A stretch of DNA of 54,384 nt, filler included, from Jimgerdemannia flammicorona (Eukaryota), in NCBI GenBank assembly GCA_003990765.1. It is 2 parts of 2 records of this genome, joined end to end, with 100 filler letters (N's around TTAATTAATTAA, not from the genome) between each part and the next. Parts side by side here need not be neighbours in the genome. Positions count along the whole stretch, not along the records: positions 1 to 27,147 come from RBNJ01000658.1; 1 more part is not named here. The stretch is one strand, 5' to 3'. The position numbers and the translations under genes are program-made. Below the pieces are notes generated by a model. It was given only the letters and a program-made list of their open reading frames with translations. It was not told the DNA's origin and made no database searches. Shown piece after piece: positions 1,154 to 47,753 of the stretch; within the stretch, counting starts at the first letter, position 1; each line of letters begins with the position of its first letter.

Positions 1154-1154
1154 T

Positions 1155-2432: not shown

Positions 2433-2472
2433 TCAGCCCCCACTAAAGGATGGTCTATCCTTAGACTGTCCT

Positions 2473-9200: not shown

Positions 9201-9955
9201 AAGATGCTGTTTCTTGTATTTGTCTTACCAGTTCTGAATGTGGGTCATTTGCTATTTAGTGGAAAATTCCTCTAGCTGGTTCTCTGAGCTGGGCCTTGTA
9301 GATGGTGATTTTTCTTTCATCTGAGAGATTCCTCAGGGCTGTGATTCCTTCAATTCCATCATGAAATTCTCTGGGGTCTTCCTCTGGATATCCTGCAAAA
9401 GTTAGTAGTAAGATAGCTATTTTATCATCACTTTCTTCTGATTCTGGTTCTAGTCCAGATTCTGATTTAGATTTGATTCTGATTCACTTTCTGAACTGTC
9501 ACTGGAGATGGGAGTGCTTGGGTATCTTGAGAATAGTGTTCTGGACCTTGGACAAAGTGGAATGAGCCTAGGTATTCTTGTAGGAGCTACTTCCAATTCT
9601 GCAAGAGTTGGTAGTAAAGGTTCTATGGGTGAGATTGATGGGACTAGTATGGGGTGTCTAGCTCTAAGATCTCAGGCTTGTGTAATGAGATCTTCTAGTT
9701 CTTGTGAAAGTTCTTCAAGTTGTCCAGCAGAGCCACCTGTATTGTCTGGTTGATCTGCTTAGGGATCTCTGGCTGTATTGGCTTCTGGTTGGGATCCTTC
9801 TGATGCTGGATAGTTGACAAGTCTTGAGGTGATTACTTCTCTTCCTGTCCAGATATTAGTTCTCCTATAGTAGCAGAGATTGGTATTGTATCAAATGTAT
9901 CCAGTTTGACTGTGGGTTCTTGTGAGCTGAAAAGTCACATCAATTTTAAAAATCC

Positions 9956-9974
9956 TCCCAGTTGAGCCCCCAAA
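9956..9974 (-). promoter_or_regulatory. Primer binding site, tRNA-Pro-like (Gypsy A)
   Basis: TTTGGGGGCTCAACTGGGA directly follows the 5' LTR. It resembles the tRNA-Pro PBS TGGGGGCTCGTCCGGGAT with CpG-type changes. The same motif occurs in B and E. Confidence 0.75.
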
Positions 9975-11201
9975 TATAATATACCTGATTCAATGGAGGC
10001 AAATTACAAGGTTGGGGGATTGATGTAGTTTGGCTTGAGCCGCCAGTTACTTTGTCAAGAGCAACAAAATGTTCTATGATTCCTGAGGTCCTTAGTGTTT
10101 AGCAGTATAATAGTCAATATGGATACAATGGTTGGTTTCATCAGGTTTCCTTATTGGGATGGTTCTCCAGGTGTAGCAGTGATTTGTATGTCTTTTCTTC
10201 TTGGGTCAACTGGGAATTGGTAGAATTTCATGTGTAGCACAACAATCTCCAAAAGTATGCGATTTCTGCATGACAATCTCTGTGAGCACAACAATCTCTG
10301 TGTAGCGTGGCAGGTTCCTTATGTGATTTCTGGGTGACGGTCTTGTGTAGCAGGATGAGTTCCTTATGCAGAGCAGTCTGGTAATTTGGCAGATTCCTTA
10401 TGCAGTTCGGCGGACAACTTGGTTTGGGTGTGGATTCTCCTGAAATGGCTTACTGGGAATTATGCTGGTGGCGGACTCTTCCTAATTTGGTGGCTTACTA
10501 GGAATATACTGGTGGTGGATTCTTCTGTATTGGGCTCACTGGGAATAAATGAATAACTCAAATAACTCAGATTCTTGACAAGTTACATCAAAGACTGGCT
10601 TTGTTTGCACAAACAGATCACTGCAAAGTTACATCAAGAGACTGGCTTGTGGCAAGGTTTCTTAAGAGTTCTTAGGGAATGTGTATTTCTCTTCAAAAGG
10701 CAGTAAAGTTCTTCCTTGAACTTTGGCAGCAAATCTTCAGCCTTAGTCTGACAAGCATACCATTCAATCTTTGTATTGGAAAGTAGACTGGGGTGGAAAG
10801 GAGACCAATGCTCAATCTTTAGAGACTTCTTTGGTGTTTGTATTTCAGACTGAGGTTTATTCACTCTTGTCTCTGGGGTATTTAATACATTGTGGTTGCT
10901 ATATGGTTTCTATGTAGCTAACTATAGATTTGCTACTTATGGTAAGTGTACTGGTTTGATATGGGTATACAAGTCTAGCACAGGTGTACAACTTTAGCAC
11001 AGGTGTGCAACTCTTACACAGGTGTGCAACTCTTATACAGATGTACCATATCTGGTAGTCTGGCTATTTATACAGTTTTCTACAGTAATAGTTACTGTAT
11101 CTGGTTACTATGCTATATATTCATATCATCTGGCTAAGTTACTAATTGTTCACATCATCTGACTAAGGTATAATTCAGTAAGTATATTTTGGTTTATCAT
11201 A
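9975..11201 (-). repeat. 5' LTR of Gypsy A
   Basis: Termini mutated to TATAAT...ATCATA. Aligns with 1155-2432. Followed by TSD CTAT. Confidence 0.93.
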
Positions 11202-13272: not shown

Positions 13273-14631
13273 TCAACATCCCCAGTAACTTCATAGATTT
13301 CGGTTTTGATGACGTTTTTTGTTTCTTTAATCAGAGCCATTTCAGATGGCTCGAAAAGTGTTTATATGGCTGGTGTGGTGAGTAGATCATTTGATTGAGG
13401 GCATCTGTGTTCAAATGATCGTGATATTTTCCATGTGAGATCACCAATCATGGGACCTAGTTATTACAGCATCACGCATTAGTACCTTAGTGTAGTCCAC
13501 CAGTTGAGGTTTTGCGCCATATAATAAACGGCATGCTGGAAAAGATGGGCCTCTTACAGGTTTTGTGAAATATACTTCTCATTCGTAGAACAGGGAAGTG
13601 GATTGATTTGATATAAAAAATATAGGGTGCCATTTAGTCCACATAGAAAGTTACTCAGAAAGACCAGCATGATTGCCTTAATCAAAATCATTTACTAAAT
13701 ACAGTTGTCAATTTTCTCCATTTCAGACATGTCCAAGAGCGTCCCGACATTACCACGCCAATCTCATGCCATTCCTCTGCGACTTCTACTCACTATGAAA
13801 TCCTTCCGTGAACTTCTTTCGGTCTCGACCTCATTACAATAGGTACGTGGCGAACTTGTGCGTATTTGTCAAGTTTAAATAATTACAGTGTAAAGCGGTG
13901 GACGTGAGAGTAGGAAATCACCATATTTTCATTCGAGTGAAAAAAAAATAAATAAAATAAAATAAATCAATGCAAGTCGCGTTCGCACTGTACTGACCAA
14001 GAATTGATCAAGTTAGTCAGTCCGTTAACCCCGCCTGCACCTCCGTTGCACATATGTCAAAAATAATACTTCAGGTCAGAGGGCCCGCTTGACGTGCACA
14101 GCTTTTGGCCGCTCCTCTTTTATCAAATCGTCTTCGCGTCAGAGGAGGGTGCGGCTTGCCTGATGAAGAGGGGTTTTCGTCTCGGCAATAGCAAACGTGG
14201 TAAATGAATTGCGCCATCTATAGCAAGTTTTGGAGGTCTCCGCAGATATTTGAATATATGTATATATGCAATACAAGGATGCAGATGAGCTTATGGACCT
14301 CGATGCAGTTGGAGTTCAATGTAGGCTGGCCTCTATGCAATATAATGGCTAGTAGAATTTTAATGCATTGGAATATATAGTCTGAACCCATCGGTTATTA
14401 CCATTTCGCTGGATGTCAATTCAGTCACTGGATACATATACAAGCCCAAACAGTCAAATTTTAGACCTCCAGATATACAATCTAGAACAAAACATCTTTG
14501 ATCTGCTAGATACAGATGCTTAAATAATTTTGTAATGATTAATATAGTAATAGAAGGAAGAAAATTGCTAAGCTTCAAAAATTAAATAAAATTAAATAAA
14601 AATAAAAGGTGATATCAACATGCTTCATAAA

Positions 14632-14634
<3 letters not shown>

Positions 14635-14679
<45 letters not shown>

Positions 14680-14680
14680 C

Positions 14681-14715
<35 letters not shown>
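14635..14715. repeat. Interrupted poly(A) tract, ~80 bp
   Basis: Seen directly. Confidence 0.9.
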
Positions 14716-14716
<1 letters not shown>

Positions 14717-14809
14717 CCAACATTCTCTTTCAAAATTTGGATGGCCATGATGTGCTGACTAATCTATCTGACTTGTTGTTAACCCAAATGGTATGTAGGT
14801 CAGCCAGAT

Positions 14810-16190
14810 GATTTCGATACAATGATACTCAGATCCCAGCACTTTCTCCCGAACCGCCAGAGCCCGTTTGCAGAAGAATCTGCTTCATTGAGTTTGCCAA
14901 GGTGGTGGTAGAATTCCTGCAGTTACTTGGTGTTCTGGTCCCAGTACCGCCTCCCAAATCGCAATCGCCCGTTGGAACAGTGGCTTCACCTCGTCGCAAT
15001 TTTCTTGGCAGCGCCGCAATAGCCCTAACATTTTCATCATTCCTTTGATGGCCTGCCCTGGCGGTCGTAGAGCCTAGCCAGATTGTTTAGAGTTACCACT
15101 GTGCCCGTCCAAACGCCTTCTTGCGGATTGTCATCACTCGTTGGTACATCCGCTCCGCGTTGTCGTACTTTCTCTACTATTGTAAAGTACAGCCTGACTA
15201 TTAATAGTTGCTTCTGCGTCCAGGAGCTTTTGTTCCAAAGCCTTTTTGCGGATCGCCAGCGCCCTTTGGCACAGCGACACCGCTTCTTCGTATTGGCCTT
15301 TGCAATTGTAGAGCCACGCCACACCATCCAGGGATGCTGCTGTGTTGGGGGCTGTTTCACATATATTTTTTCTGATATGGACACCATCATCTGCGTGAAT
15401 TCTATTGAAATCGTAATGGTGAAGAGGGGGCACTTTATTGATAACACAATAATTCGCTTTTACGCGTGTTCATTTTTGTGACGTAAGTCACAAATGGATG
15501 ACGTAGAATAATAGATGTCGAGTTGTATATCCCAACAAATTCTTCGATACCTTGAAAAACCCTACTCTTTATCAAATATCCGACCGTTTGTGTGAGCAAG
15601 AGCCTAAGACGATTTTGGAACTCTGTGTCCATCTAATCCTGATCCAATCGTTCGGTTGTGCGACAATGTGTCGGACATGAGGAAGGTGCTTTTCGTTTGT
15701 CTTTCGGACTTGAAGATTATGATACTCAATAGAGACTACTTCCCTACTCAATACAGCGACGATGCGTGCGGACGATCATTGCTCTCCATTGCACCACGAA
15801 CGACAGTTTGAACCAAGCGATGAATTGCCAGGTGTCGGTAGATGTTTCTGAATTTTCGCTGGAATTCATATTATGGGTGCATTTAATATTTTCTGAGGTA
15901 GTTTACCGAACACGGAAACTCTGCCAGCACACCTATCGCAGAGAGCACATCGTCAACTGGTTCAAGAGGTTTGCTCACTTGTTCTGGAAAGAGCGCTAGG
16001 GCATCATGCTGGCATTGGAAAATGGACGTAGGTATTACGTCTGGTTGGAGAAACGCTAAAGCTTCAAGAAACCTCGTTGCCAACGGATTCTGCTCCTTGA
16101 TATTTTTGAAGGGTAAATTACATATGGTAGCCACTGTTCTTAGGGGCGGCATCGTCGCATGTCGTAAGGAGTCGGTCTGGTTTTCGTCGA
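14810..16190 (-). pseudogene. NLR-like (NB-ARC winged-helix + TPR) pseudogene fragment
   Basis: Contains TVATICNLPFKNIKEQNPLATRFLEALAFLQPDVIP, HRLVQTVVR and LPHVRH. TPR_10/12-like repeats follow: NTAASLDGVAWLYNCKGQYEEAVSLCQRALAIRKKAL, TLNNLARLYDRQG, PLFQRAIAIWEAVLGPEH, KRALAVREKVLGSE. Frameshifts and stops present; no P-loop seen. Confidence 0.8.
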
Positions 16191-16756
16191 ACTAATTTCA
16201 GATAGGATAGATCAAGTCAGATCGGATCTATCTTAAACCATATAATCAGCGTTTGGGTGATTAACTATGGAATGTAATCAATCACCGAATCATGACATTT
16301 AGCGGCAGGCCGATAGAACGACAATAAATTACAGATTGAAGAACGACGATTAATCGACCACAGAGCAATTATTATGCAACTATGATTATCAACGATGACT
16401 AACAAAATAATGACGAAAACCACAAAGTAAATATTAGCCCCAGAATTGGGCAAGAGTGGCTTCTCTGATAACTCAGGTAACAGATTCTTAATGCTCAGCC
16501 AGGTTGCTAGGATCCTTTCGGAAATTTAACTGTACATCTGAGTGACTCATGCCATCCAAGTCCTTGTATGACTGCCATGCAATCCACAGGTTGTGGTATC
16601 TGACCTTCGTTCACACACATTTCTTTATGTGGTCAGAACATACACATACATATATATTGTGTGTCAGGCACATTAATTTATTCGCATGCAACGTAATCTT
16701 TTTAATGTGAATTACACAACAGGGCCATCATAGGCCCCCTTCATAACTACTACAAT

Positions 16757-17297
16757 TTAGTGAAGAAAATCGCCTGGGACAATACCCCACATGGGAGTAA
16801 AAGTGACCGTGATCTTGACACCTTTGTAAATGGCTTGCTGGTATTTTGCCAGGATTAATGGATTGTAATCTGCTTCACTGTAGACAGGGAAAACCCACAA
16901 AGCGTCACCGTCCCAGGCCCAATGAAGGATACCAAAGGCAGTCACGTAATGTCCCTTCTCGTTGTGGATCACGACCTGGAGGAAAGAGGATGATTTAATA
17001 AATTACTCCGTGGGATCGAAGGGCATGCAAATTCAAAATGAAGATTGAACCTGGCCAATAGCTCCTGTCTTGTCTTCATCCTTTTTGGCAATGGGGATGG
17101 AAAAGCGGGGGTGGCCCCTGGAGGCGGATATGTAATCAAAAATATGTTGAGTGTGGAGGAAGGCGAAAAACGAGAAATACTGATTCTATCAAATACCAGC
17201 CAAGTCCATGGTAAACAACATCTCCAGTAACTTCATAGGTTTCGGTCTTGACAACATTTTTCATTTCTTTCCACTGAGTCACTGTCCAATCACCCAT
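16757..17297 (-). CDS. Intact 3-exon gene, 128-aa protein of unknown function (exons 17297-17197, 17117-17051, 16975-16757)
   Basis: ATG in AAAATGG context. Two GT-AG introns (79 and 75 nt), both ending CTCCAG. Splicing gives an open 387-nt CDS: MGDWTVTQWKEMKNVVKTETYEVTGDVVYHGLGWGHPRFSIPIAKKDEDKTGAIGQVVIHNEKGHYVTAFGILHWAWDGDALWVFPVYSEADYNPLILAKYQQAIYKGVKITVTFTPMWGIVPGDFLH. Lies in CpG-normal DNA. Confidence 0.75.
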
Positions 17298-17678
17298 TTT
17301 GGACAGTTCAGAAAGTTGGTGTGGTGAGTAAGATGAAAATAATTATTTATTATTTTGATTGATACGTAATATCAGCCACACATTTTGGTCACATGATGTG
17401 GCTTATAGTCCTATTGGATATCACGATACAGATAGTCACATTTAGACTACTAGATATAGGGTACCAAATAATAGCAGGCAAAAAAAAAAATATGATGACA
17501 TAGGTGGTACCCTAGAGTACCATGCCTTTTTACCTTTTTGGATCTATTGAACAGTCTCTGTATTGCTTCCAGAGGACAGTGTGGTATAGTATATAGAGAT
17601 AGAGAAGTAATTTAATATATAATTAATTTGATACTTAAAATAAATTATATTAAGTTATTCACTTTGAAACTATAGATT

Positions 17679-17982: not shown

Positions 17983-20122
17983 GTTACTTAGACTTCAGCT
18001 TTATTACTCAACTAATCTATATAATACAATATATCTAAGCTCTACTCTCTATCTAATCTCCTCACAGAGACTACTCTAAATATTATCTCAATTGAAAGTA
18101 ACCTCTCTCTCAATTACCTGAATTCTCCCCCCACTCTCTATATATATCTTTTCTACTAATCTATAGTATAGACTCTCTCTGAGTCTCTACTCAGACTACT
18201 ACCCATTCAACAATTCCAACAACAGTCACTCCTATCTTATACCCTCACTCTCAGCAACAATTACTGACTATTCTCAAAGATATACAGCTAAGTCTACTCT
18301 ATAGAAAGCTATTTATTATTAATCTCTCTCTATCAGTTATGACTGAAGGATATCTTACCATCTCTCTCTCTTTCCTTCTAAAGGCTATATCTCTAACTAG
18401 CTCTCAATTACTAACCAGAAATCTTTCAGTATCTCATACTTATCCAGTCAATGTTCTGAGATCTGTATCATCTTCCCCTCTTATCTAACATTAAAGCATT
18501 CTTCACAGTTGAAAAACCCCCTTTTACCAAATAGTCTGATCTAAAGTTTAATATTATATTCTGATATAGAAGTCATATACTATTCAGATCTTGGAAGGAA
18601 GCTATATACTTTAATATCCTCTCACTTTATAACTAGACTCCTGTTCAGTCCTATATCTTACTGATACTTATTATCTGTCAACTCTTTAGTCACAGATCTC
18701 TTCTTTATTCTCTCTGATACTTCACACTATTCTCAAGCTAAAAATCAATTATTAGAGAGAGAGTCACTCAATAGAAGATGATCTCAATATCATATTTCAG
18801 GTCTCTAGACTGTCTCTCTCTCATCTCCATACTAGTGAATTTCTATCTAATAAGTGCTATCTACTATCTCCTATCAGAAATCTCTATAATATATTTGATG
18901 ACTCTTCTCTAGTACTATCAAGAATAGCAGATCACTAGAAGTTTCTCTGGAAGAGAACTATATCTCTCAAATCTATTATAAGAGAGATATCCAATCTTAG
19001 CCCTCTAACTTACTGATCTATTTCAACCACCATACTCTCAAACAATACAGATACTTAGTAAAGTCAATAAGACCTAGTTCTTCCCAAATCATCAGTACTG
19101 TCAATATATCCCAATCTATCTAACTTTATCTCTTAGTCCAAATTCAAGACCTAACTATCTTTAAAAGTCTCTTCACTACTCATGCAGAGAAGTCCAGATA
19201 ATATCTCAGATATTATAGCTTAGGCAATCAGTATATATTTAGCATTATAACCCTCTCTATTAATAAGAGAGTATTTCTCCATTATGCTAGCTTTTACCTC
19301 CACTATACTCTGGGAAACAATAAGTCATATATATACTAAGAAATAAATTTCCAAATATCAGACTATCTCTTCTACTGAGACAATTGTTCCAATTATATTC
19401 TCTTCTATTACTTCACTACTAAATACTAAGATCTCACATTTGTACCAGTTTATCTTAGCCACTGAACATTCTTTATACTACTCTACTATCTTCTGCAATA
19501 TAGCCATATCTTCTATAGAGTCCAGTCTAATCACTATATTATCTACAAAAGCTCCTACCTTCCAATTCACTCTCAGTACTATTAACCTATCTACTCTATA
19601 TCTGATTCTATCTAGCAAGAGTTCTAAAGAGAAAATATAGAGGATAGGTAACAACAGATCACTATGCAGTATCCCTCTACTCAAAGAGAATGATATCTCA
19701 TTATAACTATTAATCAAGATAGCCACTCTACTCCTCTCCAATAAGCTGACCAAGAACTGCTAAAAGCCTTGAGAAATTCCAATATATTTCAGTATCCTAT
19801 CTAACCATACTCTCTGTATCTGGTCATATGTCTTCTCTTGGTCTAGAAAAACCAGCTATCTATCAATTTCCACATCTTTAGTCCCTTCAATGATATCATA
19901 AATTCAGGGTATTCAATTCTGATCAAACAGCCCCCAATGAAGCTCTATTACTCCTCACCTAGTACTCTTTAAGCTATATACTATAACTAAGTAATAATGA
20001 ACTTTGTGACCAGCTTATGATCTATATTCAGAAGTATAATTAGCTACTAATTCTTTCACTTCTCTCTTCTCTCTTTATTTTTAAATAACAGAGCCACTAG
20101 GCTTAGGCATTGATCTTCTATC
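17941..20122 (-). mobile_element. 5'-truncated or interrupted L1/Tx1-like LINE (RT plus 3' end, poly(A) tail)
   Basis: T39 at 17941-17979. RT motifs FLDQEKTYD, RGILHSDLLLPILY and GAFVDNIVI. The 3' end matches that of the LINE at 20123. Confidence 0.85.
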
Positions 20123-23100
20123 TTTTTTTTTTTTTTTTTTTTTTATCTACTCCGTCTTTTTTTTTTTTTTTATAGCTACTCAGACTTTTATTTATTACCA
20201 ACTATCTATAAATAATAATATATAAGACCCCCAGCCCCATTCTCCCCCTTTCCCTACTGAAGGACAACCCAACCACCCACTACCTGAACTCTTCCTCCAC
20301 TCTTTCTACAAATATAATTTACCAATTTCTGATGGCCCCCCCCACTCAGATCCCATCCTCTCTACCAACCATTCAAAATGTCAAGTATCAACCATTCCCA
20401 ATATGCAACTCTAGCCCCAACCTCAACCCACTGGCCCTTCTCAAAAACATGGAGCCAATGACCAGCCATCTCTACCCAAATCACCAGGGCCCACCCCAAA
20501 GTCAACCATTCATCCCCAACCCCACCCACTAACCTTTGCCAAAGGTCCCCCCATCTCTCTCCTTCCCCCCCCCCACCAGGGGCCATGAGCCCAATCTATC
20601 CATAATACTGTGCCAAAACTCCCCCAGAACTTCACACTCTCTGAGCTAATGTTCAGGCATTTATACCACTCCTCCCACTTGACTCACATCCATATATTCC
20701 TCACCTTCAAACATGCCATCTGCCACCAAGTCTCCTGACCAGTAGTTTAGCATTACATTCTGCCTGAAGAACCTCCACTATACTATCCAGAACTTGGGAG
20801 GAAGCTATCTCATCACCTTCTTGCTCTAAGGCCAAACCCCAATCCAATTCTACTTCTCACCAATCTCCTCCCTTTGCCATGCTTCCAGCCATATATCCCC
20901 CCCAGACCCCTGCAAATATTCCATTCCATCACCAAGCTGAAAATCCTCCACCAATGAATCTCCCAGCAGTAACTTGTCCCATCACCATATCTGTAGTCCC
21001 CAGTCCTCCTCTCCCTCATCACCCTGCTACCAAAGTCTGTTCTTTTAGCACTATCTACCACTTCTCACCAAAAGCCTTTGTACTATATCCTCCTACTCCC
21101 ATCCATGGCCACCATTGTAAGCAGGTTATCCATCACTCTATGGGGGAAGTACCAAGCTTCCCACAACCTCTGTATGAGCAGCACCCACTCCTGGCCCCTC
21201 AACTTACTCACTCTCTTCAGCCACCATACTCTCAGACAATAAAGAAACTTAGTAAAGTCTACCATCCCCAGCCCACCTCTGTCAATAGGCAGAGTGAGAA
21301 CCTCCTAGCCTATCTGACTTCACTACCCAGTCCAAATCTATAATCTAGCCATCTTCAGAGATTGCTTGACCACCCATGCTGGAAAGTCCAGACAGTATCC
21401 CATATACCACAACTTTGGCAGCCAATATACATTCAGCACCATCACTCTTCCTGCCAAGGATATATGTCTACCACCCCACCTCAAGAGAACATTACCCCAT
21501 ACTAGTAGCTGCTGTTCCCACCATGCATGGAGCAGAAGGAATCTATACTGAAAAGTATATCCCTAAGTACTGAACTGGTTTCCCTGTGGGAACTACTATT
21601 TCAATCATATCACCACCAACTATTCCACTACTGAGCACCAGGGTCTCATATTTATGCCAGTTGAGTTATACACCAGAGCCCCTCTCATACCATTCCACTG
21701 CCCTTCTCAATTCTCCACATCCACTAATAAACCCAGTCCTACTACTATATTATCTATAAAGGCCCCAACCTTTCAGTTAATCCCCAAAATGTCCAAACCC
21801 CCAATTCAATACTGAATCCTATCCAATAGGGGCTCCAAGGAAAGGGTATATAGGATGAGTGACAGAGGATCTCCCTGTGGCACTCTATGCCCTAGTAGGA
21901 ATGTTATACCTCTATACCTATTCACTACCAATGCTGCTTGACTGTTCTCCAGTAGACTGATTAATGACCTCCTGAACTCTGGGGGAACTTCCACTCATTT
22001 CAGCACTCTCTCCAGCCAGACTCTCCTCATTCTATCATATGCCTTCTCCTGATCCAGAAACACTAACTGTCCATCAACCCCTGCTGCCTGAGCCCCTTCA
22101 ATCACCCCATGGACTCAGGCAGTTCCATCTCAGATCAACCAGCCACTAACAAATCCCTTCTGCTCTACGCCTAGTACATATCTGCTGAGTAACTCCCTGC
22201 AGCCTAGTTACTAAGATCTTTATCAACAGCTTGCAGTCTATGTCAAGGAGCATGATTGGCCACCAATTCCTCCAATCTTCTCTTCTCCTCTTATCCTTAT
22301 AGAGCAAGAAGACCAGCTCTAGGCACTGGCCCCCAATCTAATCTCCAGATTGAAGTACCTTATCATACATCACCATCATCTCCTCCAATACTACCTCCAC
22401 CCCAGCCATCTTCTTTCAAAAATCCCAGAAAAGCCTATCTTCACCTGAAGCCATTTCCTTATGTGTTGAAGTCAAGACCCTATATACTTCCTCTCTCTGC
22501 ACAGATTCACTCAAGATCCCCAGGCTCAGTACTGGATCTGAATACCAATCCTCCAACTGCCATTCAATGTCCAGAGTATCCTCACCCTCTCCTTTGTCCC
22601 TCTATAAGTTCCCCCAGCAATCTCACAGCACTCTCAGAATCCTAGGAGTCTCTACCACCATCTCTCCATCCTCCTTCAGAATACCATCCCACTGCTGTCT
22701 AGTTCTCCAAGCTTGGAGTATCCTCAAAGAAACTTAGTGAGCCTCTCCCCCTCCTCCAACCCCTGCCACCACAACCTTGCCACCATCCCTTTCAACTGAA
22801 CCTCCTCCTCCATTTGCAGCACATCCTTCAGCTTATCTACTTCCTTTTGTATCTTCCTAATTCACCAATCAACTGCCCCCAAATCCTCCAGCAATCCCAC
22901 CCACCTTCCTAGAAGCATTGCCAATCTTTGTGAAGTCCATTATACTCACCACCTCAGCTGGGCACTCCTTCCCCTCCCTGTCTCTCTCCAATACCTCTGA
23001 GCACTTGATTTTAGCTGCTGCCAGCAGTCCCTAATCTCCAATCCCTGCTCCCACCATCTGCTAATCTTTTCCACAACTTCTACCTCCCAGTCAGTCCACA

Positions 23101-24872
23101 ATAAACCCTTCTCCAACAAGAAAGAATTCAGTCACCAATGTCCAGGCTCATCCCCCCTTCCCCCAAATCTCCTGCACCCTATTAGACCCCAGTGATCTGA
23201 TCATGGACACCTGACCACTTTCAGCATCTCCCAGACATTCACTCTCCAGCACTCTGCCATCAATATCCAGTTAATCCTGGAGCCCAGTCCCACCATCCAG
23301 TGGGTATAAATTTGATGATCCACTCAGAACTGTTGCTCTGCATCAACCAAAGAGCTCAACTTCTCTATCTCCATCCAATCATCCAACCCACCACTTCTTC
23401 TACTCATATCTCTCCTACCATCAGTCCTGTCTATCCTGCTATCATGAACTATGTTGAAGTCACCCCCCAGACAATCAATCCCTACCTCACCCATAACTCC
23501 AGCCTCTTGTAAACCTCTAATCCAATCTACATGTTCTCTCCTCTCAGCTGGACAGTAATATGACCCAATATCAGGGGGTCCTACCCTGGCCTCTTCCACA
23601 CTCTCTACACCAGTCTACTCTCCCAATGTCCAATATCTCCAATATCCCCCATCCCTTTATGAACCAGAATGCCCACCCACCCAATCCATACTGCTGTCCC
23701 ACCCCATTCCCTAGTCCAGTCCTGAAAATTAACATTGGCCTCAAACTGCATATCCTGTAGCAAGAAAGGATCTACATTCAGCCCCTTCAACTAGCTAAAG
23801 AGATTCCTTTGCCATGCCACACCCCTCAACTCATTCACATTCAGAGAAAATATTCTAGTTGTACTGTTCATATTGAAAAAATGTTTGATATTGAGATCCC
23901 AGTCTAGAATTCCATGCTCAACTCATCACTAGCAAGATCTGCCTGTCTCTCTGCCTCCAACTCATCCTCTGTGACAGCCTGAGTTTCCAGTGCTTCCAAG
24001 ATTTCCTGATACTCCACCCTATCCACAACCTCTATTTCAGCCTGATAATCTGTACAAACTGCCTTCCACTTCTCCAACCCCTTCCTCAAGCCCCACAAGT
24101 ATGCTACCCAGTTATTTACAATCTCCCAAAGGACCTCCTCTCTCTGATCATCAACTTGATATTCCTCTGACTCCAAGAGCACTGCCAGGATTTCATTTCT
24201 AATCTTTCTCGGCACTTCCTCCTATAAAGAATTTCCTTCCAATACCTATCACTTAGTACCCAGAAGTCCTCACCCCTAAGCTCCTCAGCTGCTACCCCCT
24301 CCAGAGTCTTCCACAGCTACTTCTCTTCATCTACTGCCTCAGCAATACCCTGGGCAACTCCCTTGACTCCCACCACAGGGTCCACCAAAGTGCTCCTCCT
24401 TCCTGACTCATCCCACTCCTCCTCCAGTATATCCAGTAGTTCCTCCTCTCCCCCTACCCCACTCAGGACACTATACTGAGAGCAAACTTCCTCCTCTATT
24501 TCAGCATCCTTCACACCATCCAGACCCACCTTGTTTGATCCATCTGGAGCCATATTTGGAGCCATCCTGTGCTCTCCAGCCCAGGTGCTCTCCCTCAGTC
24601 CAGTACTCCCTTCTTCTATCCTACCATCTGCTACACCCCCTCCCATCTTTGCCAATAACTCTTTCTGGATTCTCCTCTCCTGTATCTTCTCCCAGGTCCC
24701 CTTATCCATCCTGATCCTTTTGCTATCTACAATCTCCACCACTGTCTTGGCCTCATATTTCTTCTGAGTCAGTCTCCTCTTCTCAACCACTCCTGTCAGA
24801 TCCTTCAAAGCCTCCAGCAAGTCCTCCTCTTCCTCAAGTATCCCCTTCACCCTTGAAACCTTGCACTCAACT
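20123..24872 (-). mobile_element. L1/Tx1-like LINE (ORF1 C-terminal part + ORF2 APE-RT), degenerate
   Basis: T tracts at 20123-20171. ORF2 begins at ATG 23871 (MNSTTRIFSLNVNELRG). APE motifs GGDFN and SDH; RT motifs FLDQEKAYDR, VPQGDPLS, AFIDN and YLGI. Acidic/coiled ORF1 remnant at 23904-24872. Confidence 0.9.
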
Positions 24873-26613
24873 TGTAAGCGCACAACCTCCAAGCCACCGA
24901 AATTACATGCGACCTCTGAACAAATCTGGAAATCACCTGCCTGATCACAAAGCTGAGTCAAACCAAAGTCACAGCGCATAAAGCTGAGTCAATACAAAGT
25001 CACAGAACATAAGATCTACACAAACGGAACCTTACTAATCAGGACCAAATGCATATATACTGAGCACCAAGACACATTGAATCAGAGAACCAAAACAACA
25101 ACAACAACTTCCAAACACACAAACATGACCACTGAGATCTACAACTGCATCCGTGCTGACATTTGGAATGCCATTGTCAACCGAGCCACACCCCCTCTGC
25201 CCCTCATGAATATCCATAGTCTGGCACCCCTCTACTTCGTGGAAACCCGATGGAATGCCCTGAACATGCTTAGCGAGGCCCACCGAATAGGACAAATCTC
25301 AAGCTACTACCAGATCAGCTGCCTCTTAGAAGACATGGTCGAACACCACCACGATACAGACATGACCCAGATGTCTCAACACCAGAAGCTCATCGCCTAC
25401 AAACATTGAGAACTCTTCTATGAGTACAATACCTTTATTCCCCGCCTCCGAGTTACTACCAGCGAAATGGTTGCTATCCTGTCCTACGGCCAAATTGATG
25501 ACATGATACAAGAAATCAACCACAAGTACCTCGAGTATGTCGAAACCATAGACAGAACCTTCCTGCACCCCGACGACCATATCCTGCAAATGCCTCAAGT
25601 CGGATACGCCATGAAGGATGTCTACGATATAATCCACTTCGATGAAGATGAAGCAGAAGACAACGACCCCTCTGATGCCGACATGACCTCTAGCCAAGGA
25701 TCTCTGCCAACCCTGATCACTCCGCCAACCTTGCCGATGAACTTACAACAGTTCATAACTGCATATGAGACTTATTGGGACAATGACCACTGGCATGAAT
25801 ACCAACCTGCGTTCACCCCCGATTACTTCAATTACAATGAAGAGACTGGAGAACACAACCTGTACCTTCAGACAATCCTCGAGATCGAACCAACCACTCC
25901 ACTACCCGAGTACGAGCAACATGAACCACAGCCGCCAGCATACTATAACCCCGCAACTCATAGTGCCGTAACCTATAGAAGGTATGCAGACAGCGAATCC
26001 GATGAAAGCGAAGACAGTACACCCATCCTTCGCCCAGCAATACCTTATCTAGCATACGAAACAGATGATACTATCCTGTGGGACGGAGATGAAGTCCCAA
26101 TGTATTACTACCTCAGCCAACAAGAAGAAGTAATCCACGAACCATTATTCCTAGATGACTACTTCATCAGAGATGATGCAATCGATGGTGATGTCATCGA
26201 GGACTACCCAGATAGTGCCTAAACCTTTAAATAGTCTAGCAGTCATAGTATAGATAGATTAGTCTTGTACGACATGACTGTGAACTGACTCAGCAGTCAG
26301 ACGATCTCTTGACATGTCAGATCACACTTGTACTACGTGACTGCATTCCGACTCAGCAAGGCACTTAGTGCTATATCCATATTCAGCATAGTCCAGATAG
26401 CCCCTCACTAGTATAAATACCCCCTCCCCCAGACCTCAGAATCTCAGACTCAAACACACAAGAACATTCTTGAATACTTCCCTACAATATCCCTTCACAC
26501 AAATACTCCTAGTATAGCAATACCATGAATAGCAAATAAACCTATTCCATAACCCACAAACCACTCTTAAGTAAATCTGCTCTCTGTTAGGTCCTACTCC
26601 TAACCCCGTCACA
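24873..26613 (+). mobile_element. Putative long LTR (1741 bp) of a third, younger element inserted in LINE ORF1
   Basis: Abrupt switch to CpG-containing DNA at TGTAAG (24873). TATAAATA at 26412-26419, AATAAA at 26535-26540, ends GTCACA (26613). The partner LTR and TSD are not visible because of the gap, and no canonical PBS was found. Confidence 0.5.
25125..26222 (+). pseudogene. 365-codon acidic (D/E/Y/P-rich) ORF with one in-frame TGA at 25407-25409
   Basis: Track ORFs 25077-25409 and 25467-26222 are in the same frame and the 19 codons between them are open. ATG at 25125 (AAACATG). The stop is compatible with CGA->TGA. No family recognised. Confidence 0.7.
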
Positions 26614-27147
26614 AAATTTCCTAATTGGGTATTGTCTGCAGCGATATACCAATTCAACTAAGCTGGTCTTAGTTTCTTGAACTTCCTGAAATACGGAAAA
26701 TCCTGAACATCCAGAACTAGTCCGAAAAAGGACTTTGGTTGAGACGTCAACCCGATCTAGAAATCAATAAGCATAGAGGATGTACTCCATATGAAATTGA
26801 TCTGGACCATAAGAAAACAGTCTTCCAGAATATCCAGAACTTTCAGAAAACCCTTCCAGAACTACGTAACGGTTACCCTAAAAAGCAACCTTCTTACAAC
26901 TTGGTAGCAGTAGTTTACAATCCAATTCCGCTTCAAGACGCTTCCTCACCCCGCTACAAACCCCTCTGTGAATTCCTACAAGTTGGTATAAAGTCCAACC
27001 TCTGAACTGAAATTAATCCGAACCATCTGACAATCTGGAGAGAATTGAACCTGACGTACAAGGACAATTTGACCTCCACACCTGCAACAAGTGGGACAAA
27101 CTTCATTCAAAGAAAGAAGTACTCCGATTAAACCAGCAAATAGGCGA

Positions 27148-33612: not shown

Positions 33613-34760
33613 TGTGAAAAACCAAAACATACCACCCAAATTATAACTTAGTCGGATGATATGAATATATAGTATAGTAATTAGATACAGTAACCATTGC
33701 TGCAGAAAACTATATAAATAGTCAGACTACTAGATAAGGTATACCTGTATACCTATGCTGAACCAGTATACCTGTGCTGAACCAGTACATCTGTGCTAAA
33801 CAAGTATATTTATACTGAACTAGCACATCTGTCATAAATAGAAATCTATAATTAGCAATATCATAACCAGATAGTAACCACAATGTATAAAATATTCCAG
33901 AGACAAGAGTGAATAAACCTTAGTCTGAATTTGAATTCAAAAGCAAAAGACAAGTCTGCCTACCACACTTTGAGAGGAACTCTATAGCTACTGCTAGGAG
34001 ATTGTGAACAAAGCATTCCTTTTCTACTCTGGTCTACTTTCTGATATAAAGAAGAGTCTGTTACATTTTTGGTTTACTTATCAGATAAGCCTGAAGAAAT
34101 CTGCCAAGTTTAAGGAAGAACTTTGCCACTATTTGAGTTATTCACTATTCCCAGAGAACTCTTAAGAAATCTTGCTACAAGCCAGTCTCTTGACACAACT
34201 TTGCAATAGAGCCAGTCTATGACATAACTCTATGCAAATGAAGTGAGTCTTTGATGTAACTTGCTAAAAATCTGTGTTATCTATGCTATCTGCTGTTTTC
34301 AAGTTATTTACTATATTCTCAGAAGAATCCTGCTGATTCAGGAAGAATTTGCGATATCTGAGTTATTCAAGTTATTGAATTATCCACCTTCCAAGTTATC
34401 TGAGTTATCTCTGTCATCTGAGTTATTTATCCATTCCTAGTGAGAAGAATCTACTACTAGTATAATTCCCAGTAAGCCTGATTCAGGAGAATCTATACCA
34501 AATTAAGTTATCCACCAAATTGCCAGACTATCATGCATAAGGAGATCATTATACTATATCAAATTACCCATGCCACACAAATCACTGCTATACCCAAGAA
34601 CCATCCTAATAAGAAAATTGACTATTGTATCTAGATTGACTATTATACTACTAAATATCAAGAATATTTTGTTGCTTTTAACAAAGTAACTGGGGGCTCA
34701 AGCCAAACTACACCAAACTCCAATCTTGTAATTTGCCTCTATTGAGCCAGGTACATTACA
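33613..34760 (+). repeat. 5' LTR of Gypsy B
   Basis: TGTGAA...ATTACA. TATAAATA at ~33713 and AATAAA at ~33912, implying a short U3 and long U5. Confidence 0.92.
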
Positions 34761-37700
34761 TTTGGGGGCTCAACTGGGAAGATTTCAAAAATTAATATGA
34801 CTTTTCAGCTCACAAGAACCCACAGTCAAACTGGATACATTTGATACAATACGAATCTCTACTACTACAGGTGAACCAGTCATTACCAGCATTTAGACAG
34901 AAAGAGAAGTAATAACTTTAAGACTTACCAACTACACAGCATCAGAAGGATCTCAACCAGAATCAGAAGCTAGTATAGCTTGAAATTCCTAACCAGATCA
35001 ACCAGATAACACAGGTGGTCCTGCTAGAAATTTTGAAGAGCTTATCCAAGAACTAGAAGATCTTATTGCACAAACTTGAAATCATACAGCCAGATACCCC
35101 ATAGCAGTTTCACCAATCTCACTCATTGAATCTTTACCACCAGCTCTTACAAAATTGGAAGTAGCTCCTTCAAGAATACCTAGGCTCATTATACTTTGCC
35201 AAGGTCCAGAACACTATCCTCAAGATATCCAAGTACTCCAATCTCTAGTAATAGTTCAGAAAGTAAATCAGAGTCAGAATCTAAATCAGAATCTGGACCA
35301 GAACCAGAATCAGAAGAAATTGATAACAAAATGGCCACCTCACTACCAACCTTTACAGGATATTCAGAAGAAGATCCTAGAGAATTCCTTAATGGAATTG
35401 AGGGAATCGCAGCCCTGAGAAATCTCTCAGATGAAAGAAAATCACCATCTACAAAGTCCAGCTTAGAGAACTAGTCAGAGGAATTTTCCACCAAACAATA
35501 AATGACCCACACTCAGAACTAGTAGCACAAATATAAGCAGCAGCATCCTATGAGTTGGAATATATAGCCATGGTCCACTGACTCATTGAAAAATATACAG
35601 GAAATGAAACCCACCATAAGGCTCAATAATCCATCATGGGGATGAAGATAAACCTTGGAGAATCACCCAGAGCATTCTTTATAAGAATCCAGAAGAGAAT
35701 GCATGCAGCTGGATTCAATGCCACCAATTAAGACATCATAGGTCCAATGATCTTCATGAATAGAATTCCTCCAAACATTGCCCAATATATCTGCACCCTA
35801 GGTATCAGAAGGTCCAAAGAGTAAGTAGATACAGCCCAAGGATTCTTGATATCAGATAAAGAACTATCTGGAGTGACTATGATAAGAAGAATGATAAAGA
35901 AGACATCCTGGTTAAAGCCCTATAAGGACTCCTTCAAGGACAAGAAAGATCTAAAGAAAGAAGGCCAGCCAAGGAAGAAAAGAAGGATAGGAGTAAAATC
36001 CAAGATCTTAGTTCCAAGTTGGACCAATTGGTTGAACATATTGAAAAACTCACTATATGTAAAAATCGGAATTATCAAGACAACAGAGGATATCTACCTC
36101 AGAGGAGCCAAGATTATCCACTAAGAGATAACAGGAGCTACCAGTAAGAGGAAAGAAGATACTCTGCCTGAGACAGAGCCCAAGTCTAATGCTTCTACTG
36201 TGGACAATTTGGATACTATATCACTGAATGTGATAACAAAAGAAGTGACTGAAGGGACTCAGAACCACCAAACTGAAGGAATGATACTCAGTATAAGAAG
36301 ACTGAAGCCCATCCTATTGAAGATTTTGAAGAAGTAAGCAACACTAAAGACTATAGTGACCTAGACTTATACCCTGCCAAGGTTACCACCCGAAAAACAG
36401 TCTACCCAGCAGAGAAAAGAAAGAGACCTGTAGGAAGGCCATCTAGGAATATTAGCAGAAGAATTCTCTAAGAAGAAGATGAAGAAGATGAAGAAGAACA
36501 AGTAGAAATACCTCTCCAGACTCCCTCACCTTTTGTCCTCAAGACAAATGAGCTGCTACCAGAGAATGAAGAAATGGAGCAAGAAGAATGGGAACCTACT
36601 ACCCCAAAGTCTAAAAAGAAGTATACCCCAAAGATCATGCCTAGAGACATCTACAATTAAGCCTGGCAGAAGATTCAAGAAGCTAAGCTGGAAGTCTCTC
36701 TCCTGTAGTTTCTATAACTAATACTAGCAAGAGTCCAAAACAAATTGCTGAGGACTACTAGGTCTAGCACTGACTGGGTCTCCATTCCACAGCAAGAGCC
36801 AGCCCCCACACCCATCTAGGCTACAGAAAGATATGTTAGCACCTACCTACATAGAGATATTGAAGGATAAAAGGTGAAAATCCTCATAGACACAAGAGCA
36901 GCAGTCTGTGTTATTGCTAAACAATTCATGGATACCCTCTAATGGCCCATTGATGGACCATCCAACCTCAGTGTCCTAGTAGCAGATGGAGCCTGAACTC
37001 AACCTCTTGGAGAAGTACAAAATATCACCATCTCTCTTAGACACATTAAGTTCTCTATCCCAAAAGCTATTATCACTGAAGCTATTACCTATAATATGAT
37101 CCTTGACACCAACTGGATGAAAGAAATGAATGCAGTTGTTGATATTAATCAACAAGTACTCAAGTTTGACTATTAAGACAAGAAGTACAGAGTTAAGGTG
37201 ACCAGCTATGAGCAATCAAAGAAGAAGAAGAAGGTCACCATCTAGAAGGAATATGCCAGTAATAAAGTATCTATCACAGAAGAGAAAGAAGAATCCAAAG
37301 ATAGAAATGATCCCAGACTCAATCCCCAGATCAGCCTAGTAGATGATAGGCCAGAATATAATATATGGGCCAAGAATACTATCCCCATTACCATTGGAGC
37401 CATTGCAGGAGAAATCAAAGAATGCCCTATCTGCCTCAAGAGACATAAGTGCCTCAAGCACTCCTCCAAGATCATTGGGACAAGGAATTCACCTGGTATA
37501 GCCTGCCCTGAGTACAGAAGAAAGAAGAAGAAATGTAGACATATCTCAGAGATACCTGCAGCTAAAGCTGCAGAAGTATAAGCAATTTGGGATCAAGAAT
37601 CATCTGAGAAAAAAGAAACTCCTAAACAGGAGGTTCTTAAACAAGAAATATCTGAGGAAGAAGAAGTCCCCAAACTCATTCCTTGGGATGACTCTTGTTG

Positions 37701-38499
37701 GATACCACCTGAACGTAATGACCCTTGGAATATAAAAGAAGGATCCAGCACAATTCCCATTATTTCCAAGAAAGAAACTCACCAAGAAAGGGCTTTTTGG
37801 CTAAGAAGATGTCCATACTAAATAGTCTTTCACTCTCCCTGAGACTACTGCTATCTGTGCCATCTACTAGATCAGCAAGAAAGACAGAGACCCTAAAGAC
37901 CAGAACCCCCAACTATAGTTGCACAGTCAACTATCTTCTAAGAAGTTACCACTAAGTTGCAAAGTCAATTTAGAGAATAAGATCTCTTCACCTGAACAGA
38001 AGTATATCCCTTATCTACTCTTCCTCCAACTTATGATCAAGATGGATACTAATTCCTGAGACAATAAGAAATTAATAATCAGAAACAGCATTTCTGAGCA
38101 ATATGATATTGTAATCATGGAAGACACTCAGATTGTGACTGCAGACATCAGAAGATTTATCTCAGTCATGATGTTGTGATCCACATCTTGAAGAGAGGAG
38201 ATAACAGAGGCCAGATCTGAAAAAGTCAGATTAAGAGGCTAAGAAGAAGAATTCTTAAGATCTATGATTTAGGAGAAGACATCCTAGCTCTTATCAGACA
38301 TGCAACTCACCAAGGATAGGTAGAAGATATCATCAACTTCATAGAAGTCCTAGACCCTATAGGAAGAAGAGGAATTAACTATCTCCAAGACTCCTCTACT
38401 GAAGCCAGATGGCCACACCTCAACCTCAGAGCCTAGAGGCTCTCTGCCAGTAGAGCCTCAGTCTAAGAATAGCCCAAACTCAGTAAGAATGTTGTCCAG

Positions 38500-38900
38500 T
38501 ATGTCTCGCTATATTCCAAGGCCAAACCTCTGACCAAAGCCTACTCAGAAGATATAGGATATGATCTTTACAGTTGGGAGGATGAATCCATTAAGTTTAG
38601 AAAAATATTTATGATCAGAACTGGACTAGCCATACAGCCACCCCAAGGAACTTACATCTAACTAACCTTAAGGTCTGGACTTACCAGACAAGGAATAACC
38701 ATAGAAGGAGAAACTATTGACTTAGAATATACAGGTGAAATCAAGATCATCCTATATAACAGTAGTACAGAATGGCACCAAATCATTAGAGGACAGAAGA
38801 TTGCCCAAGCAGTCTTCATGAAGGTTAAGACCCCATAATTATAAGAAGTTCCTGAACTGACTGAAGGAATAAGACAAGCCAAAGGATTTGGAAGTTCAGA
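38500..38900 (+). pseudogene. dUTPase domain of Gypsy B
   Basis: EDIGYDL...RSGLTRQG...TIDLEYTGEIKIIL...KIAQAVF...RQAKGFGSSD covers motifs I-V of trimeric dUTPases. Confidence 0.92.
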
Positions 38901-41768
38901 TAAGAAGAAAGTATATCTCCTTCAAGTCAACCATCTCAAGAGGAATGTTCTCCAGCAAGTGTACCACCAGCTAGTCAAACTGTACAAGAGTCTCATTCTG
39001 GAGCCTGGAGAGCAAACCACCTTCAAAATCTTTGCACCACCCGACCCCAGAAATCTCTTCTTTGAACCCAATGAAGATATCCTATACCTGGATATAGAAG
39101 AATATACATTTCCCAACAAGATGAATTCAGTATGCTCTCAAGCAACCAACCAAAGTTGGGAGACCATCATCTTGCCAAAAGGAACCATCATAGGACATCT
39201 GGTACCCTTTCTCAACCAAACTCATAGAGAAGTTTATGAACTAAACTTATCAAGAAATGGCAAAAGGTCCCAGAAGAAAGGAAAGACTCCTCTGTGATCC
39301 AGGAGATAGTAAAGCCTTCTACCAATATTGGAGAAGAATTGATACCCCAACAATAGCAACAACTAGTAGAACTCCTCAACAAATATCAAGATATCTTTAC
39401 TACTGATTATGGCAACCTATCATATAACCCATCATATCACTATAGTATAAATATAGGAAATGCAACACCCATCTGACAGAAACTCTATAGAATACCCCAT
39501 TACCTAAAGAAATTTGAAAAGGAGCACATTTAAGAGCTTTTGGACAATAGAGTCATCCAACCCTCAACTAGCTCTTGGGCTAGCCCTATACTTATTGTAT
39601 CAAAGAAAGGAGGATGGAGACTCTGTATAGATTACAGAAAACTCAATTTAGTCACTGAAAAGGATATCTATCCTTTGCTCAGAATTGATGACCTCTTGGA
39701 CCAGTTATAAGATGCCAGATACTTCAGCAATATGGACCTTTTTTTGGGATTCCATGAGATCCCCATAGACCCAATAGACATCCAAAAGACAGTCTTCCTT
39801 ACTCTAGGAAAACTGTTTGAATACCTCTGAATGCTCTTTAGACTTTACAATATACTCCCCACCTTCCAGAGAATAATGAATTCAGTCTATGCCCCCTTGA
39901 TTTACTACTGCCTAATTGTATATATGGATGATTCCAACATCTATTTATCAAATTTCAAGGAATACCTACACTACCTAGAAGAATTCTTCAAGCTTACCTG
40001 CAAGAACCATCTGAGACTCAATGCCAAGAAATGCTATTTTGGAAAACAGAAACTTAAATTCCTTAGATTCATAGTTTTGAAAGAAAGAACTCATACAGAT
40101 CCAAAGAAATCCAAGAAGATCAACAATTGGCCAGTACCCAAGACTCTGAAGGAAACACTACTATTTCTGATACTAGTATTCTACTACAGAAGATTTATCA
40201 AGAACTTTACCAAAATTGCTGCTCCAATCCAAGTCCTTCTCAAAAAAGAGTACCTTACAAATAGACAGAATCACAAGAGAAAGCCTTCAAAGAACTCAAG
40301 AACTGCATGACTACAGTACTAATTCTGGTACACTCTAATCTATAAAAGCCATTCATCTTGTATACAGATACTTCCAAAGATAGCCTGGGAGCAGTTTTAG
40401 TCTGAAGGACCAACCAATAACACCATATAATAGCTTATACAAGCTGAGCTATTAATCAGTAGCAGATGAACTATGGCAGCACCAAATTGGAATGCCTTGC
40501 AGTCATATAGGCAGTCACTCTGTTCAAGCATTATCTCATTGAAAAAAAAATTCACCCTAATTACAGACCATACAGTTCTTAAATGGCTATTCAACTACAA
40601 AAAACCTACCAGAATCCTAGCCTACTGAATCCTTATCCTTCAGGATTACAAAATCACTATCATCTACAAAGCAGGGAAAGCTTACAACAATATTGATATA
40701 CTTTCCTGCCAGCTCCAATGAATTAGAAGAAGGGTGTCCTGAGGAACTATACCCTAAAGGAAGCTCCTCAGACCATCAAAGCACAAGAAGATCTCATTCA
40801 AAAAGAACATTAGAAAGCCCACTAAGGACAGACAAATATAGAGGAGAAGTTACAAACAATATACCAATATTGGCCCAATCTCAGAACACAAGTCTGGGAT
40901 ATACTCAAGAAATGTGACACCTGTCAGAAGTACCAAGGAAGGAAGAATCACCAAGCACCACTAAACCAATCATACCACCAAACAACATCTTTCAGAGATA
41001 GAGAGTAGATGTAATTGGACCCCTACCAGTTACACCAAGAAGAAATAAGTATATTCTTATATTTGTGGAATATCTGACCAAGTGGCCCAAGACTTTCTCA
41101 ATGGAAATTACAGATATCTTGACTATTATAGGTCTTCTCCATAGACTCACACCCAGATATGGACCCCCAGAAGAACTTATCTCTGACCAAGGCACAGAAT
41201 TCATCAACAACATAATCATAAGTTATACCTGAATTCACAAGATCCATCTCAAACAGACCACATCATACCACTCTCAGACCAATGATATGACAGAAAGAAT
41301 AAATCAAACTATCAAGAAAGGACTTGCCCAAGTCAATCCTACCAACTGAGACCTCTGCTTACCTGAGATCCTATGGGAAATTTGGAACACCCCTGCTGCC
41401 TCTATCAAACAAAAGCCATTCAAAATAATATTTGCTAAGAAAACCAAAACTGCTGATCATAAGAATCTTGGAGACCTCCTTAAGAAGGCAGAATAATTAC
41501 ATAATCAAGCCTGATTCCAGATTACTAAAGCCCAAGAAAGACAAAAGAAGTACTATGACCAGAAACAAAAGGACCAGGAGATCAAGATTGGAGATCAAGT
41601 ACTAGTTTGGAGAAGCATGATTGAAACAAACTTTGGAGACCAAATGAGAAGGACCTTATCTTGTATACAATATCAGAGAAACCAATATCTATTTAAGAAG
41701 TATAGATGGATAAACCCTGAGGACACCAGTACATATTAATCACCTTAAGATATACTTCTCTCCACATC

Positions 41769-42280: not shown

Positions 42281-42320
42281 AGAACAGTCTGAGGACAGAC
42301 TATTCTTTAGTAGGGGCTGA

Positions 42321-47237: not shown

Positions 47238-47753
47238 TCAGTCATCATCCCAATAAGCATAGGCTGCTTCTGTATCTACACCTGTTTCAGCATCTTCATT
47301 GTCTGTACTGGGGTTACTCCATTCTATGGGCTCTTCTTCTTCTTCTGGGAATAGGATTTCAACAGAGTTAATAATGCTCAAATAGGTAACAGAGTTCATT
47401 CCTTGAATATCATTCAGAGAGAATTGTGCCTGTGTCAGGGCTGTGATATTTTATTTGTAAATGGTATATAGTCTGTCTGCAGTAGTAGTGTCTCTTCTGG
47501 TCAGACCTGTGGTGTTCCTGATGTAGATCTGTTCTGGGGCTGGGAGGTTCTGCAATTGTTCGCCAATTGTATAATAGGCCTGCAGTTGGTGGACTTGTAG
47601 TAGGCATCTGGCCAAGGTGAGATTTTCTTGATAAGCCTAGATCCTTTGAAGGGGACTTCCATTGGCTTGGCTGAATTGGGGTAGAGGGACTGGTAGGGCT
47701 TAGAAGGAGCTGAGGATCAATGTCTAGAGGTACTGATCAATCCTTTGGCTCAT
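47238..47753 (-). pseudogene. Gypsy D ORF4, 171 aa, four internal stops (CAR->TAR type)
   Basis: MSQRIDQYL*TLILSSF*ALPVPLPQFSQANGSPLQRI*AYQENLTLARCLLQVHQLQAYYTIGEQLQNLPAPEQIYIRNTTGLTRRDTTTADRLYTIYK*NITALTQAQFSLNDIQGMNSVTYLSIINSVEILFPEEEEEPIEWSNPSTDNEDAETGVDTEAAYAYWDDD. Confidence 0.75.

Follow-up and report, generated by a model that had tools for sequence, protein, structure and literature searches.

A protein gene under purifying selection in the U3 region of a fungal Ty3/Gypsy LTR, and its possible role as a transcription regulator

The window analysed here, a stretch of 54,384 nucleotides from Jimgerdemannia flammicorona made of two joined parts, contains a block of CpG-retaining sequence in which an open reading frame (ORF A) precedes a TATA box. 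The locus raises the question of whether an LTR can hold a gene of its own inside U3 and, if so, what such a gene would do for the element. The coordinates of all features are collected in Table 1.

Table 1. Features of the LTR, its surroundings and related ORFs in the window
Feature	Position	Strand	Basis
Decayed LINE-like element hosting the LTR insertion; left end approximate	19900..24872	-	Motifs by eye
Left flank CAACT, expected 5-bp target duplication; partner beyond contig end (27147)	24868..24872	+	TSD length from other copies
5' LTR, 2,026 bp, Ty3/Gypsy chromovirus; terminal inverted hexamers TGTAAG...CTTACA	24873..26898	+	Copy divergence points; paired LTRs elsewhere
31-bp tandem repeat; two reverse-oriented 19-bp motifs TGACT-N7-GACTCAG (24953-24971, 24984-25002)	24946..25007	+	
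TATA-like box CATATATA, 66 bp upstream of ORF start; putative ORF promoter	25052..25059	+	Activity presumed
U3 ORF A, 365 codons; premature stop at codon 95 (25407-25409) in window copy	25125..26222	+	Frame reading, copies, selection
N-terminal all-helical domain, aa 1-150, distantly common to X2/X3/X4	25125..25574	+	Profile comparison, model
Acidic-aromatic tail, aa 151-365, predicted mostly unstructured	25575..26219	+	Composition, model
63-bp-spaced repeat; two forward 19-bp motifs (26275-26293, 26338-26356)	26256..26358	+	
Main LTR TATA box TATAAATA; U3 probably ends shortly downstream	26412..26419	+	
Poly(A) signal AATAAA; putative R region	26535..26540	+	
PBS complementary to host tRNA-Met 3' end; 10/12 here, 12/12 in less mutated copies	26902..26913	+	tRNA match
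Internal region start, ended by contig end	26914..27147	+	Continues at 92-95% in other 5' LTR copies
ORF X2 of another dUTPase gypsy family, 171 codons, lying between its integrase and PPT; this copy decayed	47238..47753	-	Distant ORF A relative
Further X2 copies	near 2480-2992; 41760-42280	-; +	

The organism's own genome (231 Mb) encodes a chitin synthase (PF01644), which marks it as fungal. A DNA search of it returned 5,542 first-look candidates, which are not copy numbers, and the 40 that were scored comprise the window's own copy and 39 others, with identities of 93-96%. When 30 loci were sorted, 10 had the PBS behind the block (the window copy included), 10 had a PPT in front of it, four were solo LTRs with an exact 5-bp target duplication (TSD), three had unique flanks with no exact TSD and three were cut. 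Comparison of loci showed that both LTR ends are the exact points where copies start to differ. The left end is the TGTAAG at 24873 of the original prediction, which had put the right end near 26613 with a GTCACA terminus. That end is rejected: all 27 of the 30 loci with more than 100 bp of downstream sequence run past 26613 without a break, most copies differ at GTCACA, and the loci split 285 bp further on, at CTTACA. As predicted, the block is a multicopy LTR, and the repeat spans the ORF. The paired copies expected elsewhere in the genome were also found, as complete elements with two LTRs and a 5-bp TSD on three of five contigs examined (of the others, one was cut and one carried two 5' LTRs). 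Their LTR pairs differ at 121, 97 and 115 sites, and 329 of these 333 differences are transitions.

The window itself holds only the 5' LTR and 249 bp of internal sequence of this element, which is cut before its coding domains. A Pfam search of another copy (L031) identified gag, zinc knuckle, dUTPase, PR, RT, RH, IN and chromodomain sequences in the order gag-PR-RT-RH-IN, with the chromodomain (PF00385, E=1.7e-18) at the integrase C-terminus. The block is the 5' LTR of a high-copy, tRNA-Met-primed Ty3/Gypsy chromovirus with a dUTPase, and the window copy belongs to a truncated element rather than being a solo insert. The same tRNA-Met primer site was seen in an unrelated LTR family (L138, L141, L144). 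The gag frame seems to reach back to the PBS, beginning roughly 330 codons before the likely first Met of gag; this leader (window 26899-27147; L031:5375-6709, L163, L172) has no obvious ATG, is helical and then acidic, and has no Pfam match.

The LTR was predicted to interrupt a LINE ORF1. The insertion at TGTAAG stands; the LINE identity amounts to motifs recognised by eye (GDFN, LDQEKAYD, QGDPLS and an A-tail), a Pfam search of the interrupted element having returned nothing. The block was rightly described as less mutated than its neighbours, with a CpG observed/expected ratio of 0.64; the ratio is 0.01 for the LINE-like element and 0.03-0.13 for two gypsy copies nearby. Once inserted, copies decay almost exclusively by C>T changes, at rates of 0.22 per CpG, 0.08 per CpA, 0.04 per CpC and 0.03 per CpT, and because copies still lose CpG at this rate, the low mutation load reflects recent insertion, not protection. 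Repeats across the whole window likewise decay nearly by C>T only, most strongly at CpG and also at CpA, CpC and CpT, a pattern that looks more like methylation-driven deamination than classical CpA-specific RIP. Among them are three decayed copies (about 1150-11200 on the minus strand, 34574-43560 on the plus strand and 45900-54384 on the minus strand) of another dUTPase gypsy family, which has a different integrase type and an ORF, X2, before its PPT. A CpG-rich island (o/e 0.84) at 13300-17400, with TPR-like short coding fragments near 15037-15459 on the minus strand, is possibly a host gene remnant.

ORF A is, as first described, a frame of 1098 nt with one internal TGA. It lies wholly in U3, starting 252 bp after the LTR start and ending 190 bp before the main TATA box (the U3/R border is a predicted one), and it forms a cassette between a TATA box upstream and the LTR poly(A) signal downstream. 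Its place in the LTR means that each insertion carries two copies and each solo LTR one. A set of 125 copies was assembled from 140 by removing 15 duplicate extracts. In answer to the question of what other copies have at 25407, codon 95 is a sense codon in 113 of the 125, so the stop in the window is the minority state, and the final stop is common to all 125. A start, a stop-free frame and no gap are combined in 7 of 75 copies selected by DNA, in the single PBS-selected copy not at all (0/1) and in 22 of 49 selected by protein. An origin as a duplicate of gag or pol was considered and rejected, tblastn giving no match outside the LTR.

Among 30 loci picked by primer site, several carry a sister element, type B, with an LTR of 1.5 kb (2,207 first-look candidates, again not copy numbers). 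Its LTR shares the first ~80 and last 730 bp with that of the element described above (type A) and has a separate 680-bp U3 segment instead of ORF A. In six of seven regions (the seventh being cut short) the protease is joined directly to the 3' end, and RT, RH, IN and the chromodomain are missing. The 680-bp segment has 12 indels common to at least three of 37 extracts, which does not support it as a second intact gene. Since type B multiplies without ORF A, having lost it alongside genes whose products can be borrowed, ORF A is not needed in cis, which suggests that its protein acts in trans. Type B (L152, L154, L159, L207-L213) has the same termini, PBS and PPT and has kept gag-dUTPase-protease, and at the end of its U3 segment the final 16 codons of ORF A persist. 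The two types are often inserted in each other's LTRs (L002, L013/L038, L036, L108, L121, L126, L186, L190).

Selection on ORF A was judged from transversions common to at least three of the 125 copies, which were taken to derive from replicating parents; shared transversions were used because decay after insertion is almost entirely C>T. Silent changes make up 19 of 34 such sites, against 14.9% expected (p=4e-8, omega ~0.14), and the 15 non-silent ones are mostly mild (I/L, Q/E, N/T). The 76 copies not chosen by protein search give 17 silent sites of 31, while the other forward frames give 4-5 of 34 and the antisense shadow frame 13. The post-insertion control, in which LTR pairs were compared, behaved neutrally, with 38 of 106 changes silent against 36.7% expected; it left out one of the three pairs, used single-difference codons only and includes one pair that probably has a late frameshift. 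Indels common to at least three copies number 0 in the 1,098-nt ORF and 20 in the 863 nt of flanking LTR; across the 125 copies, ORF A shows no inherited frameshifts. Singleton transversions give an omega of 0.43, not 1, which makes transversions an imperfect neutral baseline. Outside this genome, only two near relatives came to light, with identities of 64% and 93%; the query of the first homologue search covered aa 1-338, and a search of 1.84 billion representatives gave three matches, namely two near relatives and one unrelated repeat protein. A metagenomic relative that is 63% identical over 250 aa has a matching end position and in-frame gaps only. A scan of metagenome contigs for ORF A loci confirmed 0 of 28 pattern matches. 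It is almost certain from these data that U3 holds a real protein gene, kept by purifying selection while the family replicated.

The selection data bear directly on the view that ORF A is a passenger, that is, a functionless stretch either open by chance or captured from the host. Such a view would sit well with the replication of type B in its absence and with the lack of any family for the protein: searches of ORF A or its domain gave nothing significant in Pfam, in PHROGs or among PDB sequences (best E=0.035), and ORF A had no usable match in the ESM Atlas. It does not account for the excess of silent sites, the zero inherited frameshifts beside a neutral control or the open relative elsewhere, and the U3 segment of type B shows, by contrast, how many shared indels such a stretch can gather. 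The selection tests largely refute the passenger reading, which we regard as very improbable.

What the protein might do has to be judged from its composition and predicted structure. It is strongly acidic (net charge -43, pI 4.4), and the tail, residues 151-365, includes 46 D/E, 9 K/R and 29 W/F/Y in copy P0002. The N-terminal domain, with 19 D/E and 13 K/R, is not basic overall and has a short basic helix. No transmembrane segment was detected in ORF A (highest 19-residue hydropathy 0.86), no clear nuclear localisation signal was seen and no arginine-rich motif is present. The full-length model is poor (pLDDT 35, with the tail below 50), and that of the domain, although all-helical, is weak (pLDDT 63). 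Foldseek searches with the domain model against PDB and viral structures gave nothing at E<=0.001, a DUF3102 protein at E=1.7 being at noise level, and the best VIA-align hit, a bHLH at Z 5.3 (rmsd 2.7, 58 residues aligned), is within background.

One function that might be read from these features is a post-transcriptional one, in which the protein would serve as a Rev-, Rem- or CERV-like export or packaging factor for genomic RNA. An accessory nuclear export protein is described for a Ty3/Gypsy element, CERV of Cer1 (PMC10309623). ORF A lies at the 3' end of the genomic RNA, like retroviral accessory genes, and the short basic helix of the domain would suit such a role; the lack of an arginine-rich motif argues against it. 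A long acidic-aromatic tail is also not known to be typical of export or packaging factors, and we consider this function quite unlikely.

The domain has distant counterparts in this genome. X2 matches ORF A by BLASTP at E=2e-5, a score reached in 0 of 2,000 shuffles, while HHalign gives a probability of only 6.6%. Two further ORFs, X3 and X4, were picked up at weak E-values in fetched loci by a profile of A and X2; by BLASTP, X3 matches ORF A at only E=0.08. First-look candidates, again not copy numbers, amount to 6,032 for X3 and 1,792 for X4. The four families align end to end over ~140 residues, centred on Y-x-[IL]-G-x-x-L and A-x-x-I-x-x-[LI]-F, and profiles that leave one family out give that family 20.6-35.6 bits, where shuffles reach 10.1 at most. 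This comparison is not fully independent, as a related profile had led to X3 and X4. On this sequence evidence, the N-terminal helical domain of ~140 residues appears to be distantly common to the extra ORFs of three other repeat families. X2 matched only unnamed or implausible ESM Atlas clusters with low shared counts. Diverged relatives of the domain (X5 and X3-like) were also seen in flanking repeats (L180/L208 flank, L196:2240-2662, L183). X3 is located in a U3, where a purine tract and a TG start precede it and a TATA box follows. With X2 internal and both A and X3 inside U3, relocation of the PPT to a point upstream of a 3' ORF would be a simple route by which a gene could enter the LTR. 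In all four families the tail is acidic with W/F/Y and ranges from 18 to 215 aa, that of X4, at 18 aa, having no activator-like window.

The acidic tail invites a second alternative, which the original prediction named beside a transactivator. Here ORF A would be an anti-silencing factor that shields elements in trans, its acidic part imitating DNA or serving as a decoy for a methyltransferase, chromatin protein or RNAi protein of the host. The strong acidity of the protein would suit this role. The pressure is real, as the host wipes CpG from repeats, and the families bearing ORFs of this kind reach very high abundance (first-look candidates: 5,933 and 6,032); the loss seen in non-autonomous copies is compatible as well. 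The copies, however, are unprotected, as their C>T rate at CpG shows, and the acidic part is the variable, unstructured portion of the protein, whereas known DNA mimics are compact folded proteins. We judge this role unlikely, if the least unlikely of the alternatives. The abundance of these families bears also on the idea that the protein restrains its element or competitors, through repression or by limiting copy number, and is a self-limiting factor spread by solo LTRs. The retention of a complete cassette in solo LTRs and the multiplication of type B without ORF A would both be expected of a restraint. Type A and X3 families are nevertheless among the most abundant seen, and purifying selection along replicating lineages fits a benefit to the element better, which leaves restraint slightly less probable than an export function.

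A role in transcription would be in keeping with the layout of predicted promoter signals in the LTR. The 31-bp direct repeat proved to be a tandem one, and the TATA-like sequence, the downstream TATA box and the AATAAA all lie where they were predicted. The TATATA core of the upstream box is present in all eight commonest variants, together 119 of 125 copies, and its interpretation as a deamination artefact is not supported; AGTATAAATA is present in 110 of the 112 copies with sequence at its position. The window has four occurrences of the 19-bp motif TGACT-N7-GACTCAG, all of them in the LTR and two before each TATA box; the pattern was defined after being seen, so that a shuffle count is no fair test. 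At the two motifs of the 31-bp repeat, 109 of 121 copies and 112 of 122 retain the TGASTCA core. The core alone occurs three times, a count reached by 43 of 2,000 simulations, and the X3 LTR has the core and lacks the full motif. We take the core to be an ordinary AP-1/Gcn4-type site, which a host factor could use alone. In two sequencing runs that are only guessed to be RNA, contigs cover 26 and 24 of 30 bins, with most depth at 26469-26898, although contig depth cannot rank parts of the element; loose contig ends at 26898 in both agree with the LTR end. In run X19, one guessed to be RNA, a high-depth 9.6-kb contig (record 13) starts inside a diverged ORF A relative and could be the whole active element of a related family.

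A trans-acting activator of transcription fits best, because of the small conserved domain, the variable acidic-aromatic tail, the lack of a membrane segment, the loss from type B and the motifs at two promoters. Under this proposal, a little transcription from the U3 promoter would yield the ORF A activator, a nuclear protein that would regulate transcription in trans. Its conserved helical domain would recognise element DNA, possibly at the motif pairs before both TATA boxes, either unaided or together with a host bZIP factor bound to the TGASTCA core. Coactivators would be brought in by the acidic-aromatic tail. By raising both its own transcript and the genomic transcript, the activator would close a loop like that of Tas. 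The whole statement, of a real selected U3 gene whose product is a putative regulator in such a loop, we put at somewhat short of an even chance. More tentative is the wider proposal of a new family of putative DNA-binding transactivators, each a helical domain with an acidic tail, which would be found in several distant fungal gypsy lineages and would have moved from an internal position into U3.

The selected U3 gene belongs to a family with thousands of matches and has relatives in three or more further repeat families of this genome. Should the protein activate transcription or counter silencing, it would provide a testable explanation of how these elements outpaced a host in which almost every CpG of repeats is deaminated, and a new protein domain would be gained. 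If the activator loop exists, solo LTRs in their thousands would each serve as a complete activator cassette. Fungal retrotransposons would then possess positive feedback in the style of complex retroviruses, exploited in trans by non-autonomous copies.

Among fungal chromoviruses, Tmt1 is known to have long LTRs. Fungal chromoviruses bearing a dUTPase include Tmt1 (Tuber), PosPlaTy3-3/4/5 (Postia) and Phanerochaete elements (PMC2864245), and are also covered in PMC12581995; they share with the element here the Ty3/Gypsy order, the chromodomain and the dUTPase. The legend of Figure 3 in PMC2864245 marks an 'add. ORF' with no assigned function in some fungal elements. In the element here the extra ORF is in U3 of both LTRs. 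A fungal retrotransposon with a gene inside U3 was not found in the text of the literature searched. What the present data establish is a real selected gene, from an unnamed protein family, in U3 of a fungal chromovirus LTR. Genes in U3 get masked because retrotransposon LTRs are annotated as non-coding.

The MMTV sag gene is located inside U3 and is present in both LTRs. ORF A shares this arrangement with sag. The Sag protein is described in PMC12789967 as a type II transmembrane superantigen, whereas ORF A has no hydrophobic segment and no detected similarity to it. The same source describes foamy-virus Tas/Bel1 as an accessory activator made from its own promoter and acting on that promoter and the LTR. 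This two-promoter logic resembles the one proposed for the putative activator ORF A; the Tas promoter lies in env, not in U3, and no similarity in sequence or fold to ORF A was found. In C. elegans, the Cer1 protein CERV comes from a spliced mRNA and is required for RNA export (PMC10309623); like ORF A it is a novel accessory protein of an LTR retrotransposon. Additional ORFs of LTR retrotransposons lie mostly between pol and the 3' LTR (PMC7264820, PMC5408684 and PMC12786077), with plant Grande gene23, RIRE2, Retand, fungal Boty and the bdelloid ORF3s as examples (PMC7264820; PMC5408684). Such aORFs or ORF3s resemble the present genes in being family-wide extra genes, conserved like other element genes and sometimes common to distant lineages, and X2 occupies exactly their position between pol and the 3' LTR. 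The described aORFs and ORF3s, however, belong to the internal region, whereas ORF A and X3 sit inside U3 and survive in solo LTRs.
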